From positions 288,001-352,000 of the forward strand of contig CBDDEL010000016.1 in NCBI GenBank assembly GCA_965226885.1: a stretch of DNA of 64,000 nucleotides. The letters are read 5' to 3'. Shown here piece after piece: positions 8,324 to 48,500 of this stretch. The notes under the pieces were generated by a model. It saw nothing but the letters and a program-made list of their open reading frames with translations, ran no database searches and was not told the DNA's origin. The stretch is from Opitutales bacterium. Lineage in GTDB: Bacteria; Verrucomicrobiota; Verrucomicrobiia; Opitutales; UBA2987. A program made the translations under genes and the position numbers. Each line of letters starts with the position of its first letter. Position 1 is the stretch's first letter.

Positions 8324-8620
8324 ATGGGAAGAAGACGCTTTAGTATAGAGTTCAAAAATGAGGCAGTTCAACTGATGATACTCGATGGTCTGAGCGCCAC
8401 CGAGGTATCGACCAAACTTGGGGTCAACACCAACCAATTGTATAGGTGGAAGAGGCTCTATCTGGACGATCAGCAGGGCGAAGCCACCTCAAAGCGACAG
8501 AGCAGTCCGAAGGAGATGGCGGCCGAGATAGATCGTCTTCGCAAAGAGCTGCGCCGCTCGGAGCGGATCAACCAGATACTAAAAAAAACGGTGGGCTACT
8601 TTGCCAAGGACGAACAATGA
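8324..8620 (+). CDS. IS3 transposase OrfA
   Basis: [16 protein letters not shown] and leucine zipper. A8C slippery run near 8581; stop overlaps the orfB ATG (ATGA). Confidence 0.9.
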   Translation: MGRRRFSIEFKNEAVQLMILDGLSATEVSTKLGVNTNQLYRWKRLYLDDQQGEATSKRQSSPKEMAAEIDRLRKELRRSERINQILKKTVGYFAKDEQ

Positions 8621-28321: not shown

Positions 28322-29256
28322 GTCATCACCAGCATATTTCAAGATGTTAAATATCCGATTGTCTGGTTTTGATGCCTTCGCCTGAAACACTTCTACCGGT
28401 TCTTCATCTGTAGTAGTCATGATTTATCTCTAACCCGGATATTTCGTAAAAAAAGTATCGTTGATATGCTTAACTGCTGATATACAGCAGGATAGATCAA
28501 TAATTAAAGCAATATCAGCGATGACAAAAGGTAAACAATTAAAGCTACAGTTGACAAGGGTAAAAGGCCGCCGTGTGCGGATTGATTTCAAGGGCGGAGA
28601 GGTTACTTCGGATGCCGGACTGCTTTTGATCCGGGAAGTAGATCGGCAGTTGGGCTTGACCGAACGAGCGGCCCGACAGTTAGTGGACAAACGGCAGAAG
28701 GGCAAAGTACGCCATGAGGTATTGGGGATGCTGCGGCAGCGCGTTTACGGGCTGGTGGCGGGCTATGAGGATTTGAACGACTTTGATACCCTGCGCCACG
28801 ATCCATTGTTGCAAACGGTAACGGGGCGCATTGAAACGTTGGCCAGCGCGCCGACTTTGTGTCGTTTTGAAAACGGGCAGGATCGGCGGGCGGCCTTTGC
28901 GGTAAACGAGCTGTTGGTCGAACAGTTCATGGGCTCCTTTGCCGAGGAACCCGAAGAGATCATCCTGGACTTTGACGCCACCGACAATCCGGTGCACGGG
29001 CTCCAGGAGGGACGTTTTTTCCACGGTTATTATGATCATTACTGTTTTCTGCCGCTATATGTTTTTTGCGGTGATCAGCTGCTGGTGGCCTACCTGCGGC
29101 CGAGCAAGATCGATGCCAGCAAGCATGCCGGGGCCATCCTCAAATTGCTGGTTAAACGGATTCGCCAAAGCTGGCCCCGTACGCGGATTATTTGGCGCGC
29201 CGACAGTGGATTTTGTCGAGACCGGATACTCTCTTGGTGCGACCGCAACGAAGTTA

Positions 29257-30387
29257 TACCAAATCGCAAAAGGATTGATAAAGATTAAAAAACAGCTATA
29301 AAGGCGGAATGAGAAGATATATGGGAACCGATGAAGACCGTGAACGTATCAAGAAATTGCTCAACAAAGAGGCTGTCGGCTGGCGTAAAGAGCGTTTGGT
29401 GGCATTAAAAATGGGCTTCCAGCCGCACCACAGCATTGATGAAATTGGAGCCATCGTGGGCCGAGGCAAAGCGACGATCCAGCGTTGGTTTGACAAATAT
29501 CGTGCTGCAGGGCTCGGGGCGGTGCTTACACGCGCCTACAAAGGCGGGATCAAAAGCCGTTGCGACAAAGAGGTGGAGGCCTTCTTGCTCAATGGTTTGA
29601 AGGTCGCGCGCTGGAACACAGCCGTTCAGGCGGGGCAAGAGCTGGAGCGACATTTCGGGCGCTCCTTCGCCTACAAGACGGTGTGGCGATGGCTAAAAAA
29701 ATGCGCCGGGGTGCTTCGAGTCCCTCGCCCCGTGCATGAGAAACGGGACTCGGCAAAAGCGGAAGCGTTCAAGCGAGACTTTTTTAAGATCCTCCAGGAG
29801 CTTTCCCTCACCCGAGGCAATCGGGTTCGGGTGTGGTTTGCCGATGAAAGCCGTTTTGGTTTGCTTCCGGTGTACCGCCGGTGCTGGACGCAAAGAGGGC
29901 TTCGGCCGCACAAAAAATATCAGACAAGATACCAGTGGAGCTACTGTTACGGAGCCCTCGACGTGGTCAACGGCGAGATGGTATGCATCCAAACCCCTAG
30001 CACGAATCTACAGTGGACGGAGGCTTTCCTCCAACAGATCAAAAAGCAATATCCTGAGGAGGAACATGTGGTTGTATGGGACGGGGCAGGCTTCCATCCG
30101 CACGACTCGGAGCACCCCAACGTCCCCCCGGGCATACATATCGTGAATTTGCCGCCGTATAGTCCTGAACTCAACCCGATTGAAAGACTTTGGGATATGA
30201 TACAGGATCAAACGGCCAACAAACTGTGGCCGAGCATTGAGCGACTCGAAGAAGTCGTCGCAACCCATCTCAAAGACTGGTGGGAGGACACTGAAAAAGT
30301 CCTCTCTTTAGTTGGCGGAGGCTGGCAGCACATTCAAGCAAACGCTTCTGCCAAATAATTTATTATCATACCTAATGAGATTTGGTA
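29257..30387 (+). mobile_element. IS630-family element copy 1 (1131 bp)
   Basis: TACCAAATC/GATTTGGTA IRs flanked by TTA on both sides. Confidence 0.95.
29309..30358 (+). CDS. IS630-family transposase
   Basis: WFADESRFG, VWDGAGFH, LPPYSPELNPIERLW. Confidence 0.95.
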   Translation: MRRYMGTDEDRERIKKLLNKEAVGWRKERLVALKMGFQPHHSIDEIGAIVGRGKATIQRWFDKYRAAGLGAVLTRAYKGGIKSRCDKEVEAFLLNGLKVARWNTAVQAGQELERHFGRSFAYKTVWRWLKKCAGVLRVPRPVHEKRDSAKAEAFKRDFFKILQELSLTRGNRVRVWFADESRFGLLPVYRRCWTQRGLRPHKKYQTRYQWSYCYGALDVVNGEMVCIQTPSTNLQWTEAFLQQIKKQYPEEEHVVVWDGAGFHPHDSEHPNVPPGIHIVNLPPYSPELNPIERLWDMIQDQTANKLWPSIERLEEVVATHLKDWWEDTEKVLSLVGGGWQHIQANASAK

Positions 30388-30886
30388 TTAGTTACATCGT
30401 GGGGATGGCTCGCAATGCACGCTTGCAGCAAGACGCCCAGCAGTTGCAAAAGCAGGCCAAAGAATGGTTCGAACTAAGGGGTAAAAAACAACAGTTATTC
30501 CAGGACTTCGTCTATGCTGCCGATTCGTGGCGATGGCTGCGGTTGGTCATCCATAAAGCCGAACACACCGCACAGGGGTCCAACCCGCGCTTCGTGGTGA
30601 CGAACCTGCCGGGCGATCCCCAGGAGCTTTACGACAAGGTATACTGTGGCCGCGGTGAAATGGAGAACCGAATCAAGGAACAGATGCAATTGTTCAGCGA
30701 GCGCACCAGCGCCTGTAAACGCCGGGATGAAACCGGTACGGGGGTCGGGGTAAAACCGGTACGCTTGGAATAAGGTTTAGGTTAGTAATTGCAGGTACGT
30801 CAAGGTTTAGGGTTTGGGAGTTGGTTTTGGGGATTGGCTTGGGGTCGGTGAGAAGGCCGGAGGCCGACGAGCCGGGCCCAAGGCGT

Positions 30887-31655
30887 TTATTGTTTTGGGC
30901 CACGGCGACGGCGTCGAGCATCGCGCAAGCGGTAGCTTTGCCCGTTGGCTTCGAGGATATGCACCCGATGGGTGAGTCGGTCCAGCAGAGCTCCGGTGAG
31001 CCGTTCGGAACCGAGCACTTCGATCCAGTTCTCAAAGGGCAGGTTGGTGGTGACGATGAGACTGGTGCGCTCGTAAGCGCGGCTGACCACGTCGAAGAGC
31101 AGTTCGGAACCGGTCTTGGAAAAAGGGACGTAACCGAGTTCGTCGAGGATGAGTAGGTCGAGCCTTTCGAGTTGCTTCATGAAGCGCTGCAGGTCGTGGT
31201 TGTCGCGTTGCTCGAGCATATGGGTAACCAGGGCGGTGACCCCCGAAGAAACGGATCCGCCGGCCCTGGGCACAGGCGGCAAAGCCCAGGGCGGTGGCCA
31301 GGTGCGTTTTACCGGTACCGGCGTTACCGAGGAGCAGCACGTTTTCGCGCTGGTCGACATACTCCCCGCGCATGAGCTCTCGGATGAGCGCTTCGTTGAT
31401 CGAGGGCTGCGCTTCAAAGGCGAAGCTCTCGAGGGTCTTGAGCACGGGGAAACGGGCGTTTTTGATCCGCCGCTGGGCGGCCCGCTGTTCGCGTTCAATG
31501 AGCTCCCGTTCGACCAGATGCAACAAAAAGGCGGCGTAATCGAGCCGGTCCCGGGAACAAGCCGCGGCCACCGCCGGCCATTCGCGCAGGATGGTGGGCA
31601 ACTTCAGTTTCTTGAGGTGATGGTGTAACAGCAGCTGGTTTTTTTCTTCCTTCAT
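30887..31655 (-). pseudogene. istB: IstB ATPase, frameshifted
   Basis: GNAGTGKTHLA in one frame; LLILDELGY, TTNL.F and ALLDRLTHR in another. Confidence 0.88.
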
Positions 31656-33596: not shown

Positions 33597-36297
33597 CCCG
33601 GATATTTCATGAAGGGTAAAGTTTGGCTCGTTATTGCTGTTGGAGATGGATTTCTTTGTATTTTGAGCAGATCGTCTTGATTTTTAGGTGTTTTTCAGGG
33701 TGTAGAGACACTGCCCCCTTTCCCCCATTGGTTCGGTAGTGCCGGGGGCAGCACCAATGCACCCTTTAGGTTGGCACCAATCGGCGGGCCGCATGGTTGA
33801 AAAGACTGGCCCAAGGATAACTCTCACTTAGGTGAAAGTGAATCGTTCGGGTGTTGCGCACGATGACCGCTCCGATCTTGATTAATTTGAGCCGCAGGGT
33901 GTGGCATTGGGCCCGCGCCCACTTCGTCCCTTTTAAGGCTAACCGGCGCATGGCTTCCATCAAGGTGTAGGCCAGCGCCGACAAGAGCAATCGCCACTGA
34001 TTGGCCCACCATTGATGGGCGCTGGTGCGCTCGCTGAACAATTGCATCTGTTCCTTGATTCGGTTCTCCATTTCACCGCGGCCACAGTATACCTTGTCGT
34101 AAAGCTCCTGGGGATCGCCCGGCAGGTTCGTCACCACGAAGCGCGGGTTGGACCCCTGTGCGGTGTGTTCGGCTTTATGGATGACCAACCGCAGCCATCG
34201 CCACGAATCGGCAGCATAGACGAAGTCCTGGAATAACCGTTGTTTTTTACCCCTTAGTTCGAACCATTCTTTGGCCTGCTTTTGCAACTGCTGGGCATCT
34301 TGCTGCAAGCGTGCATTGCGAGCCATCCCCACGATGTAACTAACTTCGTTGCGGTCGCACCAAGAGAGTATCCGGTCTCGACAAAATCCACTGTCGGCGC
34401 GCCAAATAATCCGCGTACGGGGCCAGCTCTGGCGAATCCGTTTAACCAGCAATTTGAGGATGGCCCCGGCATGCTTGCTGGCATCGATCTTGCTCGGCCG
34501 CAGGTAGGCCACCAGCAGCTGATCACCGCAAAAAACATATAGCGGCAGAAAACAGTAATGATCATAATAACCGTGGAAAAAACGTCCCTCCTGGAGCCCG
34601 TGCACCGGAGTGTCGGTGGCGTCAAAGTCCAGGATGATCTCTTCGGGTTCCTCGGCAAAGGAGCCCATGAACTGTTCGACCAACAGCTCGTTTACCGCAA
34701 AGGCCGCCCGCCGATCCTGCCCGTTTTCAAAACGACACAAAGTCGGCGCGCTGGCCAACGTTTCAATGCGCCCCGTTACCGTTTGCAACAATGGATCGTG
34801 GCGCAGGGTATCAAAGTCGTTCAAATCCTCATAGCCCGCCACCAGCCCGTAAACGCGCTGCCGCAGCATCCCCAATACCTCATGGCGTACTTTGCCCTTC
34901 TGCCGTTTGTCCACTAACTGTCGGGCCGCTCGTTCGGTCAAGCCCAACTGCCGATCCACTTCCCGGATCAAAAGCAGTCCGGCATCCGAAGTAATACCAA
35001 ATCTCATTAGGTATGATAATAAGTTATTTGGCAGAAGCGTTTGCTTGAATGTGCTGCCAGCCTCCGCCAACTAAAGAGAGGACTTTTTCAGTGTCCTCCC
35101 ACCAGTCTTTGAGATGGGTTGCGACGACTTCTTCGAGTCGCTCAATGCTCGGCCACAGTTTGTTGGCCGTTTGATCCTGTATCATATCCCAAAGTCTTTC
35201 AATCGGGTTGAGTTCAGGACTATACGGCGGCAAATTCACGATATGTATGCCCGGGGGGACGTTGGGGTGCTCCGAGTCGTGCGGATGGAAGCCTGCCCCG
35301 TCCCATACAACCACATGTTCCTCCTCAGGATATTGCTTTTTGATCTGTTGGAGGAAAGCCTCCGTCCACTGTAGATTCGTGCTAGGGGTTTGGATGCATA
35401 CCATCTCGCCGTTGACCACGTCGAGGGCTCCGTAACAGTAGCTCCACTGGTATCTTGTCTGATATTTTTTGTGCGGCCGAAGCCCTCTTTGCGTCCAGCA
35501 CCGGCGGTACACCGGAAGCAAACCAAAACGGCTTTCATCGGCAAACCACACCCGAACCCGATTGCCTCGGGTGAGGGAAAGCTCCTGGAGGATCTTAAAA
35601 AAGTCTCGCTTGAACGCTTCCGCTTTTGCCGAGTCCCGTTTCTCATGCACGGGCCGAGGGACTCGAAGCACCCCGGCGCATTTTTTTAGCCATCGCCACA
35701 CCGTCTTGTAGGCGAAGGAGCGCCCGAAATGTCGCTCCAGCTCTTGCCCCGCCTGAACGGCTGTGTTCCAGCGCGCGACCTTCAAACCATTGAGCAAGAA
35801 GGCCTCCACCTCTTTGTCGCAACGGCTTTTGATCCCGCCTTTGTAGGCGCGTGTAAGCACCGCCCCGAGCCCTGCAGCACGATATTTGTCAAACCAACGC
35901 TGGATCGTCGCTTTGCCTCGGCCCACGATGGCTCCAATTTCATCAATGCTGTGGTGCGGCTGGAAGCCCATTTTTAATGCCACCAAACGCTCTTTACGCC
36001 AGCCGACAGCCTCTTTGTTGAGCAATTTCTTGATACGTTCACGGTCTTCATCGGTTCCCATATATCTTCTCATTCCGCCTTTATAGCTGTTTTTTAATCT
36101 TTATCAATCCTTTTGCGATTTGGTATAACCTCTCCGCCCTTGAAATCAACCCGCACACGGCGGCCTTTTACCCTTGTCAACTGTAGCTTTAATTGTTTAC
36201 CTTTTGTCATCGCTGATATTGCTTTAATTATTGATCTATCCTGCTGTATATCAGCAGTTAAGCATATCAACGATACTTTTTTTACGAAATATCCGGG
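33597..36297 (-). mobile_element. IS1380 copy 3, interrupted by IS630
   Basis: Both IRs present, TSD TTAA, transposase split at GGEV|TSDAG. Confidence 0.95.
34995..36125 (-). mobile_element. IS630-family element copy 2 (transposase 35024-36073)
   Basis: 1131 bp, identical protein, flanked by TAA/TAA. Confidence 0.95.
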
Positions 36298-36322
36298 TTA
36301 AAGCTGGACGCAGGAGGCATTG

Positions 36323-38033: not shown

Positions 38034-38525
38034 TCAGGAGCCTTTTTGCATCGCAGCCATTTTGCGGAAGATACCAGGGCCATGAATTTGACGAAGCATT
38101 TTCCGACGGAGGGCCACAGCCAGTTTAAAGGCTTTTTCCTCCCCATATTTGCGGATGGAGATTGAAGTTGTTTTCAGTACATTGGGGGAAGGGTTCCAAC
38201 TGACCATGTAAATTTCGCTTATTTTCCCGGTAGGGCTTTTCCTTGCCGTGCGGCAGACTCCCAACACTCCGGTAGTATTTCGGGTATTACGAGAAATGAT
38301 CGTCCGACCTCGGGGCTTGGTGGGAATTTGGGCAAGCTTTTCGTAAAGCTCATCCCGGAACTGACGGGCTGCCTGCTGCGCCTTTATTTTACCCCCGCAC
38401 TTCAGGTCGCTGAAACATTTGGAATAGATTTTACCGTTTTTATACCCTTTCACATCCCATCTATGGACTGTTCCCGAATCAATGCGGGTGATTCCTTTAT
38501 TTCTTGGGTTTTTTCCTTTAGCCAT
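38034..38525 (-). CDS. basic protein with two AP2-like DNA-binding repeats
   Basis: GITRID....W......K.FSD...GG...A...A...RD, then NTTGVLGV....W.......SIRKYGEEKAFKLA...R. Confidence 0.7.
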   Translation of the reverse strand: MAKGKNPRNKGITRIDSGTVHRWDVKGYKNGKIYSKCFSDLKCGGKIKAQQAARQFRDELYEKLAQIPTKPRGRTIISRNTRNTTGVLGVCRTARKSPTGKISEIYMVSWNPSPNVLKTTSISIRKYGEEKAFKLAVALRRKMLRQIHGPGIFRKMAAMQKGS

Positions 38526-38549
38526 AGCCTATATGCTTGGCCGGTCTTT

Positions 38550-39343
38550 TTAAGCCTGCAAAAGTTTGGGCTTGTTCATTTTCCAAGCGGCAGCCCCAGC
38601 CAACAGGGTCATCAATACGATGATGCCCCATTCGTTTAGAGTGGGGATAGCCTGCACCGGCTCGGCGATTCCCGTTGAACCTGGATTAATGATGCCGTCT
38701 TCATAGGCCCAGTCGTGGATGGTGAGCGAGGAACTGTTTGCCGCAACGCTGACCTGGACCCAGCCATAGAGCAAACTCCCTGTGCCACCCGGGGAATTAT
38801 TGATAAATCTGACGCCGATAAATTTGCCTACGACACCAACGGGGAAATTACCAAAATAGGCATTGGAGCCAGATCCAAGTACACCGAAGTAAATACCAGG
38901 CGTGTTATACATCCAGAATCCGGGATTAGAGATGTTGGCAATATTGTAGTTTGTGGTCAAGACTTTGGGAAAGAAGTAAGATCCAGACGTGGCAAGGACG
39001 CCCGCATTAGTTGGGCCTGGACGGATGAGTTTGAAGGGATTGTAGTAACCAGCGTTGTTGGTAGAATAAATGTCAGTATCTCCGTCCCCGTCCAAATCGA
39101 TGGCGGTCGTGGCGTTCGAAGGCGACTGCACAACAATATCTGGCGGGTCGGTGTACTGTATGTGGCAGCCTCTGCCGCAGGGACGACAGCCAGGGCGGCA
39201 CCACCGGCAGCAGCGCTAGCCAAGGCGAGATTGCCGGGCCTTGCTGACCCTTTCCCCGCTGCAAGGGCCGATGCACGGTAGGCCTCAAGCTTGTCCTGTA
39301 AATCAATGATTTTCTTAACTGCTGGCTTTATTCTTTTTTCCAT
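38550..39343 (-). pseudogene. IPTL-CTERM sorting-domain surface protein, frameshifted near 39162
   Basis: Long leader ending AEAA, a 2-nt frame disruption, then IQYTDPPD...DLDGDG...YGWV...IHDWAYE. C-terminal IPTLNEWGIIVLMTLL + basic tail. Confidence 0.8.
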
Positions 39344-39547
39344 AATTCATCCTCATCAATGTTCAAAATAAAGGTGGCGTCTTTGAAATACCCATCCAAC
39401 CAATTTTGCATCATAGCTTGCTGCCAACATAAGTCAATCAGTTTGTGTCCGGCTCTTTGCCCTCACCGCAAGGGATGACACAATACAAGGTTCATTCCCC
39501 CCTTTTACAGAAAAAATTTTGATCGGCATTTGAATAATACATGTATG

Positions 39548-39575
39548 CTTCCTGAAACCCCCTTCCTGAAACCCC
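39548..39575. repeat. perfect tandem duplication 2 x 14 bp
   Basis: CTTCCTGAAACCCC twice. Confidence 0.9.
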
Positions 39576-39828
39576 TTTTGTAAAATTTCTGGGATGGAGG
39601 GTTTAACCAATACGTATATCGCCACCAGGGAAATGCATCGACCCCCGCCCCCCCTTCGGCAGTCCTGACATTTTCCTATCAAATAACAGCCATTCCTATC
39701 AAGTTTCTGGCCGTTCCTTGCCGTTTAGTTCCTTTCAATGCACAAGCTATGAATGGCATGTAAGCCAGTAAACAAGCGGGATACCCGATGAATAAAGGGC
39801 TAGAAGCTGGTTTTTGATTGGCCATGTT

Positions 39829-40445
39829 GTCGGTTTGACCAACCGGCCTAATATTCCGGGCGAACCGATTGCCGCCCCGGCGCAGCGAAGGGCTTTAAAT
39901 TCTGAAATTAATCCCAAACTAAGGAGAAATATAATGATCGAAAAAATCACCGATAAATTGGGCCTTTCGCCCGATGCCAATGAGGAGGATATCCTGCAAA
40001 CGCTGGAAAGTCTCCTTGATGACAGCCGCCAGTGGAATGAAGCTGGGGCCGTTACCGCCAATCAAGCGGAAACCCTGCGGATGGAGACGAAGCGTCTGCA
40101 AAACCGGGTCAGCGAGGCGCGCGCATTGAACTGATTTTGCAGGGGGCGCTGCGGGAGGCCCGCATCTGGCCGGCGGAAAAGGAGGAATGGGAAAGCCAGC
40201 TAAGGGAGAATTTCGATGAATCCGTGGAAGTCCTGGCCAATGCGCAGCCGATTCTCAATACCCACAGCCGCACGGCAGAGCTCGCAGGGAGCCATTTTAA
40301 AATGAGCCGCCAGGAGCGATTTCTGGAGGTGGTCAACGACCGCATGGACCGCACCGGAGAGGACTTCACAACGGCCTGGTCGAACTGCAAAAGGGAGCGC
40401 AGCGATCTGTTTGAACGATTGGCGCAACCCGACCGCAGCCGTTGA
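39829..40445 (+). pseudogene. 3' remnant of Mu-like prohead protease/scaffold (gpI/Z-like) gene
   Basis: Starts at the protease C-terminal motif VGLTNRPNIPG. Internal AAGGAG RBS + ATG at 39934 (KLGLSPDANEEDIL). A frameshift in a (GC)n run near 40116-40124 leads into ALREARIWPAEKEEW. Confidence 0.7.
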
Positions 40446-40533
40446 AGAGGAAGATTTTTCAGCAATTCATTCCATTTATTAGAATCATGGAAATGAATTT
40501 ACCACTAACCATCAAAAATAAAATACCAAAACA

Positions 40534-41197
40534 ATGACAACAATACTCCTGATTAGCATGACAATTGCCTTCGCCTTGATCGCGTGGGTCGTTCTGGAAA
40601 AAGTAAAAGGAGCCTCCCGGCCACGATTTTCCAATGTGACCGAAGGCACTCACGAGGGCAGCATCACGAAAAAAACTGACGCCGCCCTGAGCACCCGTTT
40701 CTCCCTCGTAAAAATCGGCAGCGACGCTGATCACATTGCCGTGTGCGGAGCGGGCGACCGGCCCCTGGGAATCGCCACCGATGAAGCGGAGGCGGCCGAG
40801 GACAACCTAAATGTGAACCTGCTGGGCTCCTCATCTAGCACCCAGAAAGCGGTTGCCAGCGAGGCCATCGCGGTGGGCGACTCCGTCTTCACGGCGGCCT
40901 CGGGCAAGGTGCAAAACGAACCCGGCGGGGCCGGGACCTACTACCTGGTGGGGAGGGGCCTTGACGGCCGCCGGAGCCGATGGCGAGGTCATAGAGATCG
41001 AGCCACAGGCGCCCCAGCGTACGGTGGTCATCGCCACCCTTGGAAACACCGATGCGGAAATCGGTGGTTTGACCATCGGGGGAACCTACACCCAGTCCGA
41101 AGTTGAAGCCCTCCGGGACAAGGCGGAGGAACTGGCGGACGATGTGCGCGCCCTGGCAACGGCGCTGTCCGAGCCCTCATTAGTGAAAGTCCTCTAG
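40534..41197 (+). CDS. capsid decoration/cement protein (DUF2190-like) with hydrophobic leader; one apparent frameshift near 40955
   Basis: RFSLVKIG...PLGIA...VASEAIAVGD.V.TAASGKV...VGRALTAA.ADGEVIEI once one G is removed from a G-run. Lies between scaffold and capsid genes. Confidence 0.75.
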
Positions 41198-41265
41198 TCG
41201 AGGATGGAGAACCGAAATTAAAAAAAATCTGCAAACAACCAAAAAAAAGAAAGAGAACCTGTTTT

Positions 41266-42240
41266 ATGAAAACCAATATCAATCCCTACTTCCCCGCCAT
41301 GCCTCTGGCCGTCGATGACGGTATGCAGGCGCCGGGGATCATTTGCGCGGCCAATGAAAGCCGTTTCAACGCCGCCCATCTGTCCGAGCCGCTGACCGCT
41401 TTCACGGTGGGCTGGCAAGACCCCGAAAACCTGCGCGAGCTGCTCGATTTCATCGCCCCGGTGGTGCTGGTGGGCCGTCGTTTCGAGTTCAAAAAAGCCG
41501 TCAACGCGGAAGCATTTTTGTCCGAAACGGATGATGTGCGGGCCATCGGCTCGGCCTTCAAGCGGGTCGAGTACAGCGGCGAAACGGTGAATGAAAAGAC
41601 CTTTAACAAGGGGCTGACCATTCGCATCGACCACGATGAAGAGGTGGGAGCCGAATGGCAGGAACGCAATGTGCAATTGCTCTTGCAGCGGCTTTACCGC
41701 AACGAGGTGCGCCGAGCCATCACCGCCCTGGACGGGGCCGACACCAATCTGGCCAAGACCTGGGACGGCAGCTCGAATCCGGACGCCGATGTGCGGGCCT
41801 CCCTCATCCTTGCAACAAGTGCTACCGGCGCCCGCCCCAACCGGGCGATCTTCGGCGAGGGGGCCTGGGATATCCGGGCCAATGCCTACGATGGGCAAAA
41901 CAACGCGGGAGCCTACCGTTCGGCCGGGCTCACCCCGGAGGAATTGGCGCGCAAGCTGTTCATCAACGGGGTGCGCGTGGTGAGTGCCCGCTACCAATCT
42001 TCCGCATCCGCCAAGAGCAAGATACTGGGAGACACCGTTTACCTGTATTATGCCCTCGATGGGCAGATGAAGGATGAGCCATCCAACATCAAACGATTCG
42101 TCACTCCTTCAGAGGAGGGGCATTTCCGGGTCTATGTGGAAGACCATAGCAAATTCACCGATATCACAGTGGAGCATTACAGCAATGTAGTCATCACATC
42201 CTCACTGGGAATACGCAAACTCACCGTCTCTGCATCCTGA
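41266..42240 (+). CDS. probable phage-type major capsid protein (HK97 fold), intact
   Basis: 324 aa in the canonical position after protease/scaffold and decoration genes. LT.F.VGW, F.APVV.V, E-loop RAIGSAF, KTW..SSNP.AD, RPN.AIFG..AW, LARKL. Confidence 0.75.
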   Translation: MKTNINPYFPAMPLAVDDGMQAPGIICAANESRFNAAHLSEPLTAFTVGWQDPENLRELLDFIAPVVLVGRRFEFKKAVNAEAFLSETDDVRAIGSAFKRVEYSGETVNEKTFNKGLTIRIDHDEEVGAEWQERNVQLLLQRLYRNEVRRAITALDGADTNLAKTWDGSSNPDADVRASLILATSATGARPNRAIFGEGAWDIRANAYDGQNNAGAYRSAGLTPEELARKLFINGVRVVSARYQSSASAKSKILGDTVYLYYALDGQMKDEPSNIKRFVTPSEEGHFRVYVEDHSKFTDITVEHYSNVVITSSLGIRKLTVSAS

Positions 42241-42297
42241 TCCCCAACACGACAACACTAAATGACACATGCCGGAAACGATCCGCATGGGTCAACG

Positions 42298-42326
42298 GAA
42301 GGGGCCTTCGGTCCCCTTCTTTTTTT
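42298..42326 (+). terminator. Rho-independent terminator after capsid gene
   Basis: GAAGGGGCC-TTCG-GTCCCCTTC followed by T7. Confidence 0.85.
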
Positions 42327-42482
42327 CTGGAAACTTTCTGGAAACTATTTGAAATCACACCTTAAATAAGAATTTTGCGAAATTATCGAAACCAGAGCGG
42401 CGAGTTCATTGTTAATAGGCAATGTAAAAGCGGGCTCGACAAGACAGCCAATATGCAAACCCAATTCAAGTTATTCAGCTTT

Positions 42483-42893
42483 ATGAAACGATTACTATTC
42501 CTTCTTCCGGCATTGTTTCTGCTCTCGGCGTGCAGCAAAGATATGCAGCTGGTTGAATTCAAATCCGGGGCCAGGGCAGAAGGATTCTGGGACTCGGGCA
42601 AACGAGAGCTGCGGATTTATCTGGAGGATGGCGAGATACTGACCGGCAAATTCATCAAAATGAGCCAGGCCCGTTTTCGAATTACAACCGGGGTAGGATT
42701 CGGGGGCCGCCACACGCGGGCCGGGGTTTACCCGTCCATCGGCATTGATGGCCAGGGCAATATTTACGCGCTACTTGAGGACCCCAAATCCCATTTGGTA
42801 ATGGAGGTGGTGGCCGATTACAACTGGCTCGGGGGGGGAGGACACGGCGAGGCCCGGACCAACGACGGCCGCGTTTACAAGATGGTTTTTTAG
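42483..42893 (+). CDS. putative lipoprotein
   Basis: MKRLLFLLPALFLLSAC lipobox. C-terminal G.GEARTNDGRVYKMVF. Confidence 0.75.
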   Translation: MKRLLFLLPALFLLSACSKDMQLVEFKSGARAEGFWDSGKRELRIYLEDGEILTGKFIKMSQARFRITTGVGFGGRHTRAGVYPSIGIDGQGNIYALLEDPKSHLVMEVVADYNWLGGGGHGEARTNDGRVYKMVF

Positions 42894-43506: not shown

Positions 43507-43649
43507 TGGACATCGGGGAATTGAAGGAACCGTTCCCCCAATACACCGATATCAGCAATTCTTTCCTTTTTAATACTGCTCCGGGCCATGCCTAGGGCAT
43601 TGCAATTCCCTGCTTTTTTTCAAAAAACTTATCCACTGGGAGCTTGTAA

Positions 43650-44780
43650 TACCAAATCTCATTAGGTATGATAATAAGTTATTTGGCAGAAGCGTTTGCT
43701 TGAATGTGCTGCCAGCCTCCGCCAACTAAAGAGAGGACTTTTTCAGTGTCCTCCCACCAGTCTTTGAGATGGGTTGCGACGACTTCTTCGAGTCGCTCAA
43801 TGCTCGGCCACAGTTTGTTGGCCGTTTGATCCTGTATCATATCCCAAAGTCTTTCAATCGGGTTGAGTTCAGGACTATACGGCGGCAAATTCACGATATG
43901 TATGCCCGGGGGGACGTTGGGGTGCTCCGAGTCGTGCGGATGGAAGCCTGCCCCGTCCCATACAACCACATGTTCCTCCTCAGGATATTGCTTTTTGATC
44001 TGTTGGAGGAAAGCCTCCGTCCACTGTAGATTCGTGCTAGGGGTTTGGATGCATACCATCTCGCCGTTGACCACGTCGAGGGCTCCGTAACAGTAGCTCC
44101 ACTGGTATCTTGTCTGATATTTTTTGTGCGGCCGAAGCCCTCTTTGCGTCCAGCACCGGCGGTACACCGGAAGCAAACCAAAACGGCTTTCATCGGCAAA
44201 CCACACCCGAACCCGATTGCCTCGGGTGAGGGAAAGCTCCTGGAGGATCTTAAAAAAGTCTCGCTTGAACGCTTCCGCTTTTGCCGAGTCCCGTTTCTCA
44301 TGCACGGGGCGAGGGACTCGAAGCACCCCGGCGCATTTTTTTAGCCATCGCCACACCGTCTTGTAGGCGAAGGAGCGCCCGAAATGTCGCTCCAGCTCTT
44401 GCCCCGCCTGAACGGCTGTGTTCCAGCGCGCGACCTTCAAACCATTGAGCAAGAAGGCCTCCACCTCTTTGTCGCAACGGCTTTTGATCCCGCCTTTGTA
44501 GGCGCGTGTAAGCACCGCCCCGAGCCCTGCAGCACGATATTTGTCAAACCAACGCTGGATCGTCGCTTTGCCTCGGCCCACGATGGCTCCAATTTCATCA
44601 ATGCTGTGGTGCGGCTGGAAGCCCATTTTTAATGCCACCAAACGCTCTTTACGCCAGCCGACAGCCTCTTTGTTGAGCAATTTCTTGATACGTTCACGGT
44701 CTTCATCGGTTCCCATATATCTTCTCATTCCGCCTTTATAGCTGCTTTTTAATCTTTATCAATCCTTTTGCGATTTGGTA
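43650..44780 (-). mobile_element. IS630-family element copy 3 (transposase 43679-44728)
   Basis: 1131 bp, identical protein, flanked by TAA/TAA, intergenic. Confidence 0.95.
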
Positions 44781-44823
44781 TAAGACTTAAAATCCTTGGA
44801 AATCTTCCGAAATCCTAAGAGAT

Positions 44824-45444: not shown

Positions 45445-45590
45445 TTCCTAGTCGTCAAAGTATCACTTTCCGCTGGCTGGATGCCTCATTCCGGCTGCAA
45501 AAATTTCAATTGAGGTAATCCGCTCCGGCAGGGCTATGAATTAAATGCGTTGCGTGGGGCTCCGATGTCGTTAAAAGATTGCATTCTATG

Positions 45591-45620
45591 TTTGGGCACA
45601 TTTGGGCACATTTGGGCACA
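45591..45620. repeat. perfect tandem repeat 3 x 10 bp upstream of glnE
   Basis: TTTGGGCACA three times. Confidence 0.95.
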
Positions 45621-45654
45621 GTTTTCCAATGGCCAGAAAAAGTTTTACCGGACA

Positions 45655-48500
45655 ATGGCTTTCGTAGAAGAGCTGATCAAAAAATTGCAAAATAACCAGA
45701 CGAGCCTGCCGGGGGTTCTCGGTGAACAGTCGGCTATAGACCGCCTGGAAAGATTGGCCGCATACTGTCCTGTTTATAAGAATTTTCTGACGCAATTTCC
45801 TCAATACGCAATCTGGCTGGAAGATCCAGCCAATCGAGACGAAACCTTTCGCTACAGCGCGTTTAAAAATACATGGGAAGAGGATTTCACCGAAAAAGGG
45901 GATTCCGTGAGTAGTTTCCTGAGCAGGCTGCAAAGGTTCCGCCGGCAGATGTCCATGCGAATCGCCTATCGGGAGATCAACAAATTATCGACGGTGGGAG
46001 AATCCATGCTGGAACTCACATTGCTGGCGGAATTCTGCCTGAAACTGGTTGCCTCCCGAACCCAGGCCGATTGGCAAAAGCGCCTCGGCCAGCCTTGGGA
46101 TGAGGCCTTGGACCGGCCGGCCGCCTATTGTGTTCTGGGTCTCGGCAAACTGGGCGGCAGGGAGCTGAATTTCTGTTCCGATCTCGACCTGATTTACTTG
46201 TTCGATGGCGAGGGGCACTGCCGAAAAGAGGGCAAGCCAACCACGGCAAGCAACGAATATTTTTTTACCAAAATGTTTCAGACCATGACCGGGACTTTGC
46301 AAAAGCGCAGCCACTCCGGCTTTCTTTACAACATCGATTTGAGGCTGCGACCAGAGGGTTCCACCGGTCCCATAGTGAGGCCCCTGTCGGCCATGGAGCA
46401 TTATTATTACACCAGAGGGCAAGCATGGGAACGGCTGGCAGAGGGCAAGCATGGGAACGGCTGGCCTTGCTGCGGGCGCGGCCGGTGGCCGGGATTTTGA
46501 GTCTGGGGGAAGAGTTTTTCGAGAACGTAAATCCTTTTCGCTACCCGAGGCATCCGCCGGAAGAGATGATTTCCGATGTGGCCGGCGTGAAAATTAGAAT
46601 TGAGAAGGAACTGGCAGGTGAACTCCAGTTAAAAAACGACCTCAAAACCGGGTATGGCGGCATCCGGGAAATTGAATTTTTTGTGCAAACCCTGCAATTG
46701 CTGCACGCAGGCAAAAACCCTTTTTTGCAAGTGGAAAGCACTCTGGAAACTATCCAGCTTCTTACCCGCTACAAATTGCTCGGCGGGAGTGAAGCCACCT
46801 TTCTGTCGGAGGCGTATCATTTCCTGCGCACAGTGGAGCATCGCCTGCAAATGAGAGAAGAAAAACAAACCCACACTCTGCCCGATGATGAGTCCGCATT
46901 GGAAACCCTGTCCCGCTTGCTCGGTTTCCGTGATTATGCAGAATTAGAAAAACGCATGCTGCCATTGAGAGATAAAGTGCGAGCTATCTACAGCAGCCTC
47001 TTCAAAGGGGACGACCGTGAAAATGAATTACAGGACTGGACCGTTTTTTTATCCGGAAATGCCGCCTCCCCTCAAATCCGGCAATCCCTTGCCAAATGGT
47101 TCCGCGGAATCCCGGAAAAGGAAGCCGAAATCCGACTGCGGACTTTCGCCCTGGGCAGCCCCAATTACGCCGTGACGCGTGAACAGGCGCAACTGTTTTT
47201 GAACCTGGCGCGTCAATTCGAGGTGGTGCTGCCTCAACTGGCGCACCCATTGCTTTCTCTCGAAAGAGTGTCCCGATTTGCCGAAAGCTACACGGCGCGG
47301 AAATTTTTCTTCAAAACCTGCGCCGAAAATCCTAGTTTCTTTCATTCCCTGTGTCTGTTGCTCGACCGCAGTCAATTCACCACCCAACTGCTCTGCCAGC
47401 ACCCAGAGATAATGGAGGAAGTCCTCGTCATCCAGAGCCATAGGCACAAATCGCCGGCTCGTATTTTGAAGGAATTAGGAGAGCTTCCTGGCGGTGCGGA
47501 ATTTCCCCGATGGCTCTGGCTCTATGTTAAAGCGGAGCAGGTGCGTCTTTCCATTTTGCAATTAACGGAGGATTGCAGGGTCGAGGAATTGGAGCAAAAG
47601 CTCACTCTGCTAGCCGATTCGGCCTTGCAATACACGCTCAAGATGATCGATCCGCAAGAGCGCCTCACCGTCATCGGGCTGGGAAAACTCGGTGCGCAAG
47701 AAATGACCTTGGGTTCCGACCTCGACCTGCTCATTTTAACCGATGAAAAAGACAATGCGTCCACCGCCAAAACAGCACAGCGATTACTCGCTATTTTGGG
47801 ACACCGCCACCCGTTGGGGCCCAACTTCGAGATCGACTTGCGCCTGCGCCCCCACGGCCGGGACGGCCCTCTCCTTACCTCCTTGAAGGCTTTCGCCAAA
47901 TACCATCAAAAATCGGCCCAGACCTGGGAAAAACAATTGCTGACCCGCTCAAGATTTATTGCCGGCAATGAACAAATTGCACGCGGCTTTGTCGAACTTC
48001 GACACAAACTGCTTTATTCAGCGCCTCTTAAAAAAGAGGAATGGAGTGATATCCTGAAGATGAAAAATCGCCTCGAAAATACGAATATCCCGCCGGACAA
48101 CCCCTACCGGGCCTTTAAAAAAGCTCCCGGCGGTCTGATCGGAATTGAGTTTGCCTGTCAAATGGCAGTTTTAAAATACGGCGCAGCAATTCCGCAGCTT
48201 GTTCAGGCCAGCACCCGCTAAGTACTGAAGAAATTGCCGGAACTAGGCTTACAGGAATCCGGTCAAAACCTGATCCTGCAAAAAAATTACGAAACTCTCA
48301 GAACCGTGGAACTCCATTCGAGAAGGGAAACCAACAAGGCCGTCGATACCCTATCGAAAAAGCCTGAAACCCAGGAGGTCTTGGCAAAATGGATGGGTTT
48401 TAAGGATCGTGAAGCATTTTGGGCCCAGCATCAAAAGGGCATGCTGGATAACAAAAAGATTGTAAAAATCCTTATAAATGAAATAATTAGCACACACTAG
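45655..48500 (+). pseudogene. glnE: glutamine synthetase adenylyltransferase, disrupted
   Basis: Two NT domains (GLGKLGGRELNFCSDLDL / GLGKLGAQEMTLGSDLDL, IDLRLRP.G) and K.G.GGIREIEF. A 26-bp duplication at 46413-46464 frameshifts it and there is an in-frame TAA at 48219-48221. Confidence 0.9.
46413..46464. repeat. perfect tandem duplication 2 x 26 bp (frameshifts glnE)
   Basis: CAGAGGGCAAGCATGGGAACGGCTGG twice. Confidence 0.95.

Follow-up and report, generated by a model that had tools for sequence, protein, structure and literature searches.

What is an intact phage-type capsid gene, preceded by two damaged head genes, doing in a stretch of bacterial DNA that otherwise holds host genes and insertion sequences (ISs)? 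The question is posed by positions 39829–42326 of a 64-kb stretch of G000, the genome of an Opitutales bacterium (5.48 Mb, completeness 96.3%); the whole 64-kb stretch is called the window here, and its first base is position 1. A preliminary description, made from the sequence alone, took the three genes for an orphan module and explained it as the relic of a prophage or else as a capsid system that had been domesticated. Here we propose, with a probability of about 0.7, that the window holds the non-functional remains of a compact cluster of phage origin, similar in kind to a gene transfer agent, that was ancestral to much of the host order (Opitutales/Puniceicoccales). The value of the module lies in pointing to this gene-transfer-agent-like element, which is apparently undescribed; text searches of the literature found no such element described for Verrucomicrobiota, Opitutales or Puniceicoccales/Puniceicoccaceae.

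Pfam and PHROGs matches bear out the three co-oriented genes, all on the plus strand and in the canonical head order of scaffold, cement (decoration) and capsid. The first is the C-terminal, scaffold part of a protease/scaffold protein resembling gpI of phage Mu (PF10123, Mu-like_Pro, expectation value E = 2.7e-7; also phrog_328, head maturation protease), with a match that covers only profile positions 118–205 of 330. It is read in two pieces: part A (39829–40134; open reading frame (ORF) starts at 39814 and 39934) matches residues 189–292 of the homologue in G001, a genome of the same genus, and ends at a TGA stop at 40132–40134 owing to a frame change further 3′, and part B (40110–40445; ORF 40137–40445), in another frame, matches residues 306–418. 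The cement gene (40534–41197; Phage_cement_2, PF09956, E = 2.4e-5; phrog_673) likewise lies in two frames. The third gene (41266–42240), single-copy in the genome, encodes an intact protein of 324 residues that matches phrog_1005 (major head protein, E = 4.9e-9) and no Pfam capsid family at E ≤ 1. An AlphaFold2 model built on 15 orthologues (mean predicted local distance difference test score (pLDDT) 69, predicted template-modelling score 0.68), with the N-terminal ~115 residues poorly predicted, retrieved 225 chains from the PDB at E ≤ 0.001, 3BJQ first, followed by many phage capsids and, lower down, encapsulins; 168 models in BFVD matched at the same threshold. The protein is thus predicted to be a major capsid protein of the HK97 fold, as had been supposed. 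An intrinsic-terminator-like hairpin (42297–42320, plus strand) with a T run, together extending to 42327, follows the capsid gene and agrees with the terminator first described there.

Pfam scans of the 61 ORFs of the window returned host genes and IS transposases, with no terminase, portal, tail, phage integrase or lysis gene anywhere in the 64 kb, no phage-type repressor or replication gene near the head genes and no cargo or defence gene adjoining the capsid gene. The isolation of the module within the window is therefore real, and its status as an orphan system is not: it retains three genes of a cluster of ~11 kb and 12–13 genes that is found in related genomes. Gene order was established by clustering the ORFs of 18 loci (contexts of up to 20 kb) and of 51 further loci of at least 14 kb, the latter drawn from 80 loci that were themselves the best 80 of 142 relatives found in a pattern scan using one genome per species; in GC-rich genes the ORF caller frequently picked an antisense frame (clusters x1, x2 and c12), so that c2, c3 and c0 are under-counted. 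The recurrent order is c8-c4-c3-c0-c1-c2-c6-c9-c7-c10-c5-c11, and the full cluster consists, in order, of a small ORF and genes for a small terminase similar to Mu gp27, a large terminase, a Mu-type portal, the gpI-like protease/scaffold, the cement protein, the HK97-fold capsid, a head–tail adaptor, two proteins of ~130–155 residues, a fibre-like protein, a baseplate-hub protein of ~578 residues and one protein of ~190 residues.

In the relatives, the portal matches Portal_Mu (PF06074) at E of about 1e-61 to 1e-63, the protease matches Mu-like_Pro (PF10123) at E = 3.5e-26 and the large terminase is assigned to Terminase_6N/6C from Pfam and PHROGs; the small terminase matches the gp27 family (PF11985) at E = 1.2e-5, below the cut-off, and the adaptor (c6) was judged from homologues on viral contigs that match phrog_195. 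For the hub (c5, 578 residues), Pfam and a PDB profile search gave no sequence match and an Atlas search returned viral hypothetical clusters only. Its structural model (pLDDT 77.6) has 65 PDB matches at E ≤ 0.001 among baseplate hubs and central spikes, including AlgoCIS (E = 7e-14), Mu gp44, MuSo2, T4 gp27 and VgrG. Among the 15 aligned capsid orthologues there is one weak match to Phage_capsid_4 (1.1e-3) and no match to an encapsulin family in Pfam. Two architectures were also seen, (a) in loci L024, L025, L043, L045 and L066 and (b) in L022 and L023; one has c7, hub c5, c11 and a fibre protein of 470–640 residues, the other has a fibre-like protein of 770–1014 residues directly after the adaptor and is without the hub.

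A separate feature of the scaffold gene is an internal ATG at 39934, behind AAGGAG (39920–39936), that opens its scaffold part. In Mu, gpZ is nested within gene I; the methionine of the internal start is conserved across the genus and in G032 and G017, with a purine-rich motif 5′ of the ATG, which suggests that a nested scaffold protein could be made here in the manner of gpZ.

The intact cluster has housekeeping genes as neighbours. Across the loci whose flanks were annotated by Pfam and PHROGs, no integrase, phage-type transposase, repressor, lysis or replication gene lies beside it. In a 0.8-Mb genome the flanks are Fe-ADH and a ComM-like gene on one side and Ppx and an RluD-like pseudouridine synthase gene on the other; in the gut group they are GalK-GalE-UDPGP and PurH/HemA, each common to 6–10 gut-group loci. 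In the relatives, then, structural and packaging genes only, with housekeeping genes on both sides, make up the arrangement that is expected of a gene transfer agent. An intact or inducible prophage can be set aside on the absence of phage-type integrase or transposase, repressor, lysis and replication genes, both among the 61 window ORFs and in the annotated flanks of the relatives.

From this gene content we infer how the intact cluster might work as a gene-transfer-agent-like element. The protease/scaffold would assemble the capsid protein on the portal, the terminase would fill the head with DNA, and a short tail would consist of adaptor, hub and fibre; the small DNA-filled particles so built for the host would move host DNA, as gene transfer agents do.

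The capsid is present in 33 of 61 relatives. In an even sample of the order, with E ≤ 1e-10 as the threshold for presence, it occurs in 160 of 401 genomes, mostly as one match per genome. Some families are rich in it (f3, 32/34; f4, 13/17; f8, 19/23; f12, 14/16; f19, 12/14), with a prevalence of 80–94% in several, and several of the capsid-rich families have genomes of only 0.8–1.0 Mb; others are poor in it (f23, 0/33; f22, 2/34; f30, 3/33). Within the host family the capsid occurs in three of the four other genomes of the host genus (g1) and in none of four of genera g2 and g3. A sample of the phylum gave matches in 15 of 301 genomes, four of them outside the order (three scoring below the orthologues and one weak). 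The best 80 of the 142 relatives all belong to Opitutales, Puniceicoccales/Puniceicoccaceae, Opitutia or unclassified Verrucomicrobiota, with the exception of one 'uncultured bacterium'. Many relatives are metagenome-assembled genomes (MAGs) from termite guts, and there are also cultured carriers, namely Cerasicoccus maritimus, C. frondis, Intestinicryptomonas porci and Puniceicoccaceae bacterium Marseille-Q1082.

The preliminary description had proposed to look for orthologues that are single-copy, vertically inherited and under purifying selection. Single copies are the rule, as noted above. By the Nei–Gojobori method, all ten cluster genes of one pair of termite-gut MAGs have a ratio of nonsynonymous to synonymous divergence (dN/dS) of 0.07–0.12, at a synonymous divergence (dS) of 1.0–2.3 that is near saturation, and within the host genus the capsid gives 0.081–0.093. 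The cluster is under purifying selection. Vertical inheritance finds partial support. For the 26 genomes shared by the capsid and RpoB trees, 10 of 23 splits are in common (mean 0.26 and maximum 3 with permuted labels, 2000 trials), each of the six families represented by at least two genomes forms a single clade in the capsid tree, both trees place the host genus beside one and the same sister family (G032) and the flanks of the cluster are conserved within families. Across much of the order the cluster may have been largely vertically inherited, with partial agreement between the trees.

Two side observations concern copies that may have other histories. In G052 (L034 / L086) the capsid groups with that of a distant family, the locus stands amid many small unassigned ORFs and most other members of its own family are without the gene (present in one of seven), which makes G052 a candidate for horizontal acquisition. 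Five genomes of one family (G197, G250, G133, G080 and G324) have a second, far more divergent capsid copy, with E of about 1e-75 to 1e-84 against 1e-150 for the main one; these second copies may be true prophages of a related phage group.

What has become of the cluster in G000 itself was traced by tblastn, with queries taken from the clusters of four relatives, which located pieces at three places. Besides the window locus, contig C11 holds the small and large terminase genes, the latter with ~1.27 kb carrying a 325-residue IS-type ORF inside it, and contig C17 holds a shortened adaptor gene, c9 and a fibre gene cut down to its first ~250 residues, with IS copies adjoining. The frames left open are those of the small terminase (c8, 157 residues), c9 (156 residues) and the capsid. 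No portal, c7, c5 or c11 was found in G000 by tblastn, and the Portal_Mu model has no match in this genome but matches G001 and two further genomes of the genus, G002 and G004. Family searches with Terminase_6C and Phage_portal were also blank in G000, which is weak evidence because Terminase_6C missed the IS-split large terminase. The preliminary description had suggested a search for separate portal, terminase and tail clusters; terminases and adaptor, c9 and fibre genes do lie elsewhere in the genome, with neither portal nor hub among them.

In the window, homology to the protease/scaffold gene of the same-genus genomes G004 and G002 begins only at position 39829, which is therefore a rearrangement breakpoint. 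The position corresponds to residue ~189 of the 418-residue intact protein of G001, so that the protease domain is gone, and the damage to this gene extends well beyond the frameshift to which it had been put down. A loose contig end in sequencing run X3, at 39835, runs on into upstream coding sequence that is intact and belongs to a co-occurring relative. The breakpoint abuts a non-coding repeat stretch (39135–39828, the family reaching to ~39845) with 35 blastn matches in the genome, a family of 4–15 copies with 77–86% identity among them; contig depth is higher at 39600–39790.

Downstream of the breakpoint, alignment to G004, the nearest relative (96% identity in the capsid), identifies two further lesions. 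A 70-bp deletion with its junction at 40110/40111 shifts the frame of the scaffold gene, and one extra base in a G-rich run at ~40954–40955 breaks the frame of the cement gene on the plus strand. Both frameshift sites lie in G/C-rich runs, and both had been suspected of being errors in simple repeats. They were checked in Logan contigs of three runs, X1 from one study and X2 and X3 from another. At the scaffold site the X1 contig (39690–40674) and the X2 and X3 contigs (39960–40349) agree with the assembly, and at the cement site so do contigs of all three runs (from 40846/40854 to 41275/41300), with 0 differences and 0 gaps at either place; sequencing error is thereby ruled out for both. A divergent minor strain in X1 and in a fourth run, X4, is without the extra cement base. 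The 14 sequencing runs listed for this region include no RNA run. A programmed frameshift in the cement gene is ruled out as well, since the gene is intact in a single frame in G001 and G002 (220–222 residues).

With the large terminase split, no portal found, the protease domain deleted and the scaffold and cement genes broken, no particle would be expected from these genes, and a complete gene-transfer-agent set is not present in G000. We suggest that IS-driven rearrangement scattered the cluster over three places in this genome and destroyed it.

The other members of the genus place this decay in context. In G001 and G002 the genes from small terminase to capsid are intact and are followed by the same lipoprotein gene (42375–42893 in the window, plus strand) and downstream genes as in the window, and in G000 and the capsid-bearing congeners G001, G002 and G004 alike the lipoprotein gene lies directly 3′ of the capsid gene as a conserved host flank. 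In the genus the adaptor, c9 and fibre genes are on contigs other than that of the capsid, and a profile of hub c5 found nothing in G000, G001, G002, G004 or G032, having matched four of five control genomes. The genus thus carries a two-locus, hub-less variant of the cluster. The dispersed head cluster first proposed is in part borne out by this, and for G000 the set is incomplete.

G004 keeps the whole locus, with one nonsense codon each in c8, c4, c3 and c0 (small terminase, large terminase, portal and protease/scaffold; L026, reverse strand, ~2811, 5431, 6459 and 8267); a deletion of 28 bp affects its cement gene (c1), and its capsid gene is intact. Recoding in G004 was considered and ruled out, the in-frame stops being a mixture of TGA at W, TAG at E, TAA at Q and TGA at W. 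No lesion is demonstrably common to G000 and G004, the 70-bp deletion in G000 having removed the site of the scaffold stop in G004. On this evidence, the lineages of G000 and G004 would have lost the system independently.

We interpret the window accordingly. The same downstream flank in G001, G002 and G004, together with the conservation of the cluster, indicates that what has decayed is not an ordinary, patchy prophage. Of the two alternatives first offered, relic and domesticated system, the former holds for the G000 copy, which is broken, and likeness to a gene transfer agent holds at the level of the clade, where the cluster is conserved, structural only and under purifying selection. Recent decay, and not a new role, is the most probable reason why the capsid is still intact. 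A more far-reaching version, which we offer tentatively and at less than even odds, is that the intact cluster is a Mu-derived gene transfer agent which Opitutales/Puniceicoccales domesticated independently and keep, even as symbionts of 0.8–1 Mb, for exchanging or repairing DNA, and that it is dying in the IS-flooded lineage of the window, its capsid possibly outliving the rest through a second use.

Several observations pull the other way from a relic of an ancestral gene-transfer-agent-like cluster. Many families of the order are without the capsid, so that repeated loss must be assumed, or several gains. Tree congruence is partial, with 13 of 23 splits differing and G052 clearly misplaced in the capsid tree, and the Mantel correlation (rho 0.36) was reached by 72 of 5000 permutations. 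The cluster contains neither a tape measure nor a recognised tail tube, and the subclade that holds the genus is also without hub c5. Related capsids (38–56% identity) stand on IMG/VR contigs that look like real phages, so that the family is still active as a virus somewhere, and some of the genomic copies may be prophages. Finally, in both G000 and G004 the capsid is intact, with a dN/dS of 0.08, and the adjoining head and packaging genes carry lineage-specific lesions, a pattern under which the capsid alone could still be selected.

This last point bears on a rival reading, in which the capsid has been co-opted alone in the G000/G004 lineage, as a shell, nanocompartment or anti-phage decoy, and is selected while its partners decay. 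Its intactness beside independently damaged neighbours fits such a history, as do a ribosome-binding region and terminator of its own and a dN/dS of 0.081 against G004 at dS 0.23 (0.082 against G002), no higher than in deeper comparisons. Yet between G000 and G004 the adjoining pseudogenes are also low (0.17 for scaffold part B and 0.16 for cement, with ~0.13 for neighbouring host genes), which indicates that selection acted for the greater part of the period after the split and that the lesions are recent; dN/dS is silent on the time since then. At ~1 lesion per kb in the other cluster genes, the chance that a gene of 975 bp escapes in both lineages is ~0.14 by a rough estimate, so that the intact capsid needs no special explanation. 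Ordered assembly of an HK97-type capsid usually depends on a scaffold, which counts against co-option of the capsid alone, as does the lack of an adjoining cargo or defence gene in the Pfam annotation of the window. Nothing specific supports the nanocompartment or capsid-interference defence that had been envisaged for the lone capsid, and we regard its co-option as unlikely.

An ordinary remnant of a recently infecting Mu-like prophage that was never domesticated appears improbable. Such an origin would account for a GC content of 0.57–0.60 in the module against 0.41–0.51 in the neighbouring kilobases, for related capsids on phage-like contigs in IMG/VR and for the missing capsid in genera g2 and g3 of the host family. 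It is hard to reconcile with the same locus and downstream flank in three other species of the genus, with the sister-family orthologue (G032) in both trees, with annotated loci that carry no integrase, phage-type transposase, repressor, lysis or replication gene, and with a cluster that is carried by most genomes of several families and whose genes are all under purifying selection. That the genes of G000 still cooperate as a dispersed gene-transfer-agent system, with the frameshifts bypassed by programming or suppression, would agree with pieces at three places, with open small terminase, c9 and capsid frames and with frameshift sites in G/C-rich runs, but is very improbable given a portal missing by tblastn and by a Pfam model with positive controls in three congeners, an IS-interrupted large terminase, a deleted protease domain, a first 'frameshift' that is in fact a 70-bp deletion and a cement gene whose single frame in G001 and G002 argues against an ancestral programmed shift.

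The relic of the cluster stands in a genome heavily loaded with ISs. The module was first described as IS-free, which is correct within its 2.5 kb only, since IS630-like copies stand on both sides of it and the window has at least 12 IS-related ORFs. The upstream copy (34990–36128, minus strand) encodes a 349-residue DDE_3 transposase (ORF 35024–36073; PF13358, E = 3.3e-26), and a second copy, identical to it, occupies 43646–44783 (minus strand; ORF 43679–44728), a site at which G004 has none. Contig C16 alone has 13 near-identical full copies of this element, and a 1.5-kb probe (window 34801–36300) gave 719 blastn matches across G000. The genome is also larger than those of other members of the genus (5.48 Mb against 3.4–4.3 Mb), which suggests IS expansion. 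Among the other ISs of the window, a DDE_Tnp_1_4 gene (28461–29288 and 30312–30773) is cut by an IS630-like copy (29309–30358), a nested insertion spanning 28461–30773, and three identical IS3-like transposase ORFs of 362 residues lie at 8446, 27170 and 55450. A match to PF22483 (31810–32451) raised the possibility of a phage Mu transposase; it adjoins an IstB-like ATPase gene (31032–31655) and fits an IS21-type element.

The repeat stretch at the breakpoint lies upstream of a gene for an IPTL-CTERM protein (38550–39131, minus strand; PF18203). The region 38034–39131, together with 39135–39845, belongs to a multi-copy family consisting of AP2-domain and IPTL-CTERM/FG-GAP proteins and upstream non-coding DNA, with copies on contigs C10, C16 and C17. 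Further downstream, the GlnE gene (45550–48221) is present as two overlapping frames of 316 and 697 residues, compared with a single ORF of 939 residues in G002; this housekeeping gene, too, looks frameshifted in G000.

In the smallest genomes, ~11 kb under purifying selection in less than 1 Mb is more than 1% of the genome, which speaks for a genuine advantage to the host. The existence of cultured carriers makes the idea directly testable. For annotation, the lesson is that a solitary capsid gene can be all that is still legible of a gene-transfer-agent-like element, and that catalogues of viral contigs can list such a cluster as a virus. IMG/VR contains 43 contigs with relatives of the capsid. 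Four of these entries (L179, L180, L212 and L216) are identical to host locus L033 and so are the host cluster entered as a virus. The other contigs, with 38–56% capsid identity, have portals of 520–580 residues, longer terminases, extra genes and proteins of 800–1100 residues, and look like real phages. Set beside these phage-like relatives, the host cluster, with a portal of ~400 residues, looks like the reduced descendant of a phage group that still exists. Among the INPHARED phages there is one distant capsid match, an Akkermansia phage with 24% identity (E = 6e-4).

How, finally, does the cluster compare with systems already known? At the level of the capsid, the PDB offers one match by sequence, which is also the best by structure: 3BJQ, the phage-related protein BB3626 of Bordetella bronchiseptica, which shares the HK97-like fold (Foldseek E = 1e-9, template-modelling score about 0.55–0.6; profile E = 7.6e-4) at 12–16% identity and is a proteobacterial prophage protein. 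Encapsulins also form HK97-fold shells (Foldseek E about 1e-5) and rank below many phage capsids; they differ from the capsid orthologues of the cluster, which sit among portal, terminase, scaffold and adaptor genes. This context, the absence of an adjoining cargo gene and the absence of an encapsulin match in Pfam rule against an encapsulin nanocompartment.

The likeness to Mu is one of parts and of order. The cluster has Portal_Mu, Mu-like_Pro and a weak gp27 match in Mu gene order, possibly a nested scaffold start like that of gpZ, and a hub whose fold resembles Mu gp44. Unlike Mu, it has no transposase, contractile tail genes or early region, and its capsid is not detectably a member of the Mu gpT capsid family in Pfam.

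Gene transfer agents of the RcGTA type are those of Alphaproteobacteria, and the cluster resembles them in consisting of chromosomal head, packaging and short-tail genes only, in a probably largely vertical inheritance, in being under purifying selection, in being kept in small symbiont genomes and in having its parts at separate loci in some lineages. It differs in phylum and, apparently, in origin, with a Mu-type portal, a gp27-like small terminase and a gpI-like protease/scaffold that point to independent derivation, and in a capsid outside the Pfam capsid families and no recognisable tape measure or tail tube; the copy in the window is broken.

Beyond Alphaproteobacteria, the gene transfer agents known so far are very few (PMC12946183), and a catalogue of symbionts lists two families of Opitutales as exclusive to symbiosis and mentions gene transfer agents for alphaproteobacterial endosymbionts only (10.1101/2025.05.29.656868). 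A further parallel is FpGTA of Faecalibacterium, which has a structural operon of ~10.5 kb with a second operon elsewhere and packages fragments of 8.4–8.9 kb (PMC12946183). FpGTA shares with the cluster a structural operon of similar length accompanied by a second locus, a host outside Alphaproteobacteria and a first recognition through conservation across a genus (PMC12946183).

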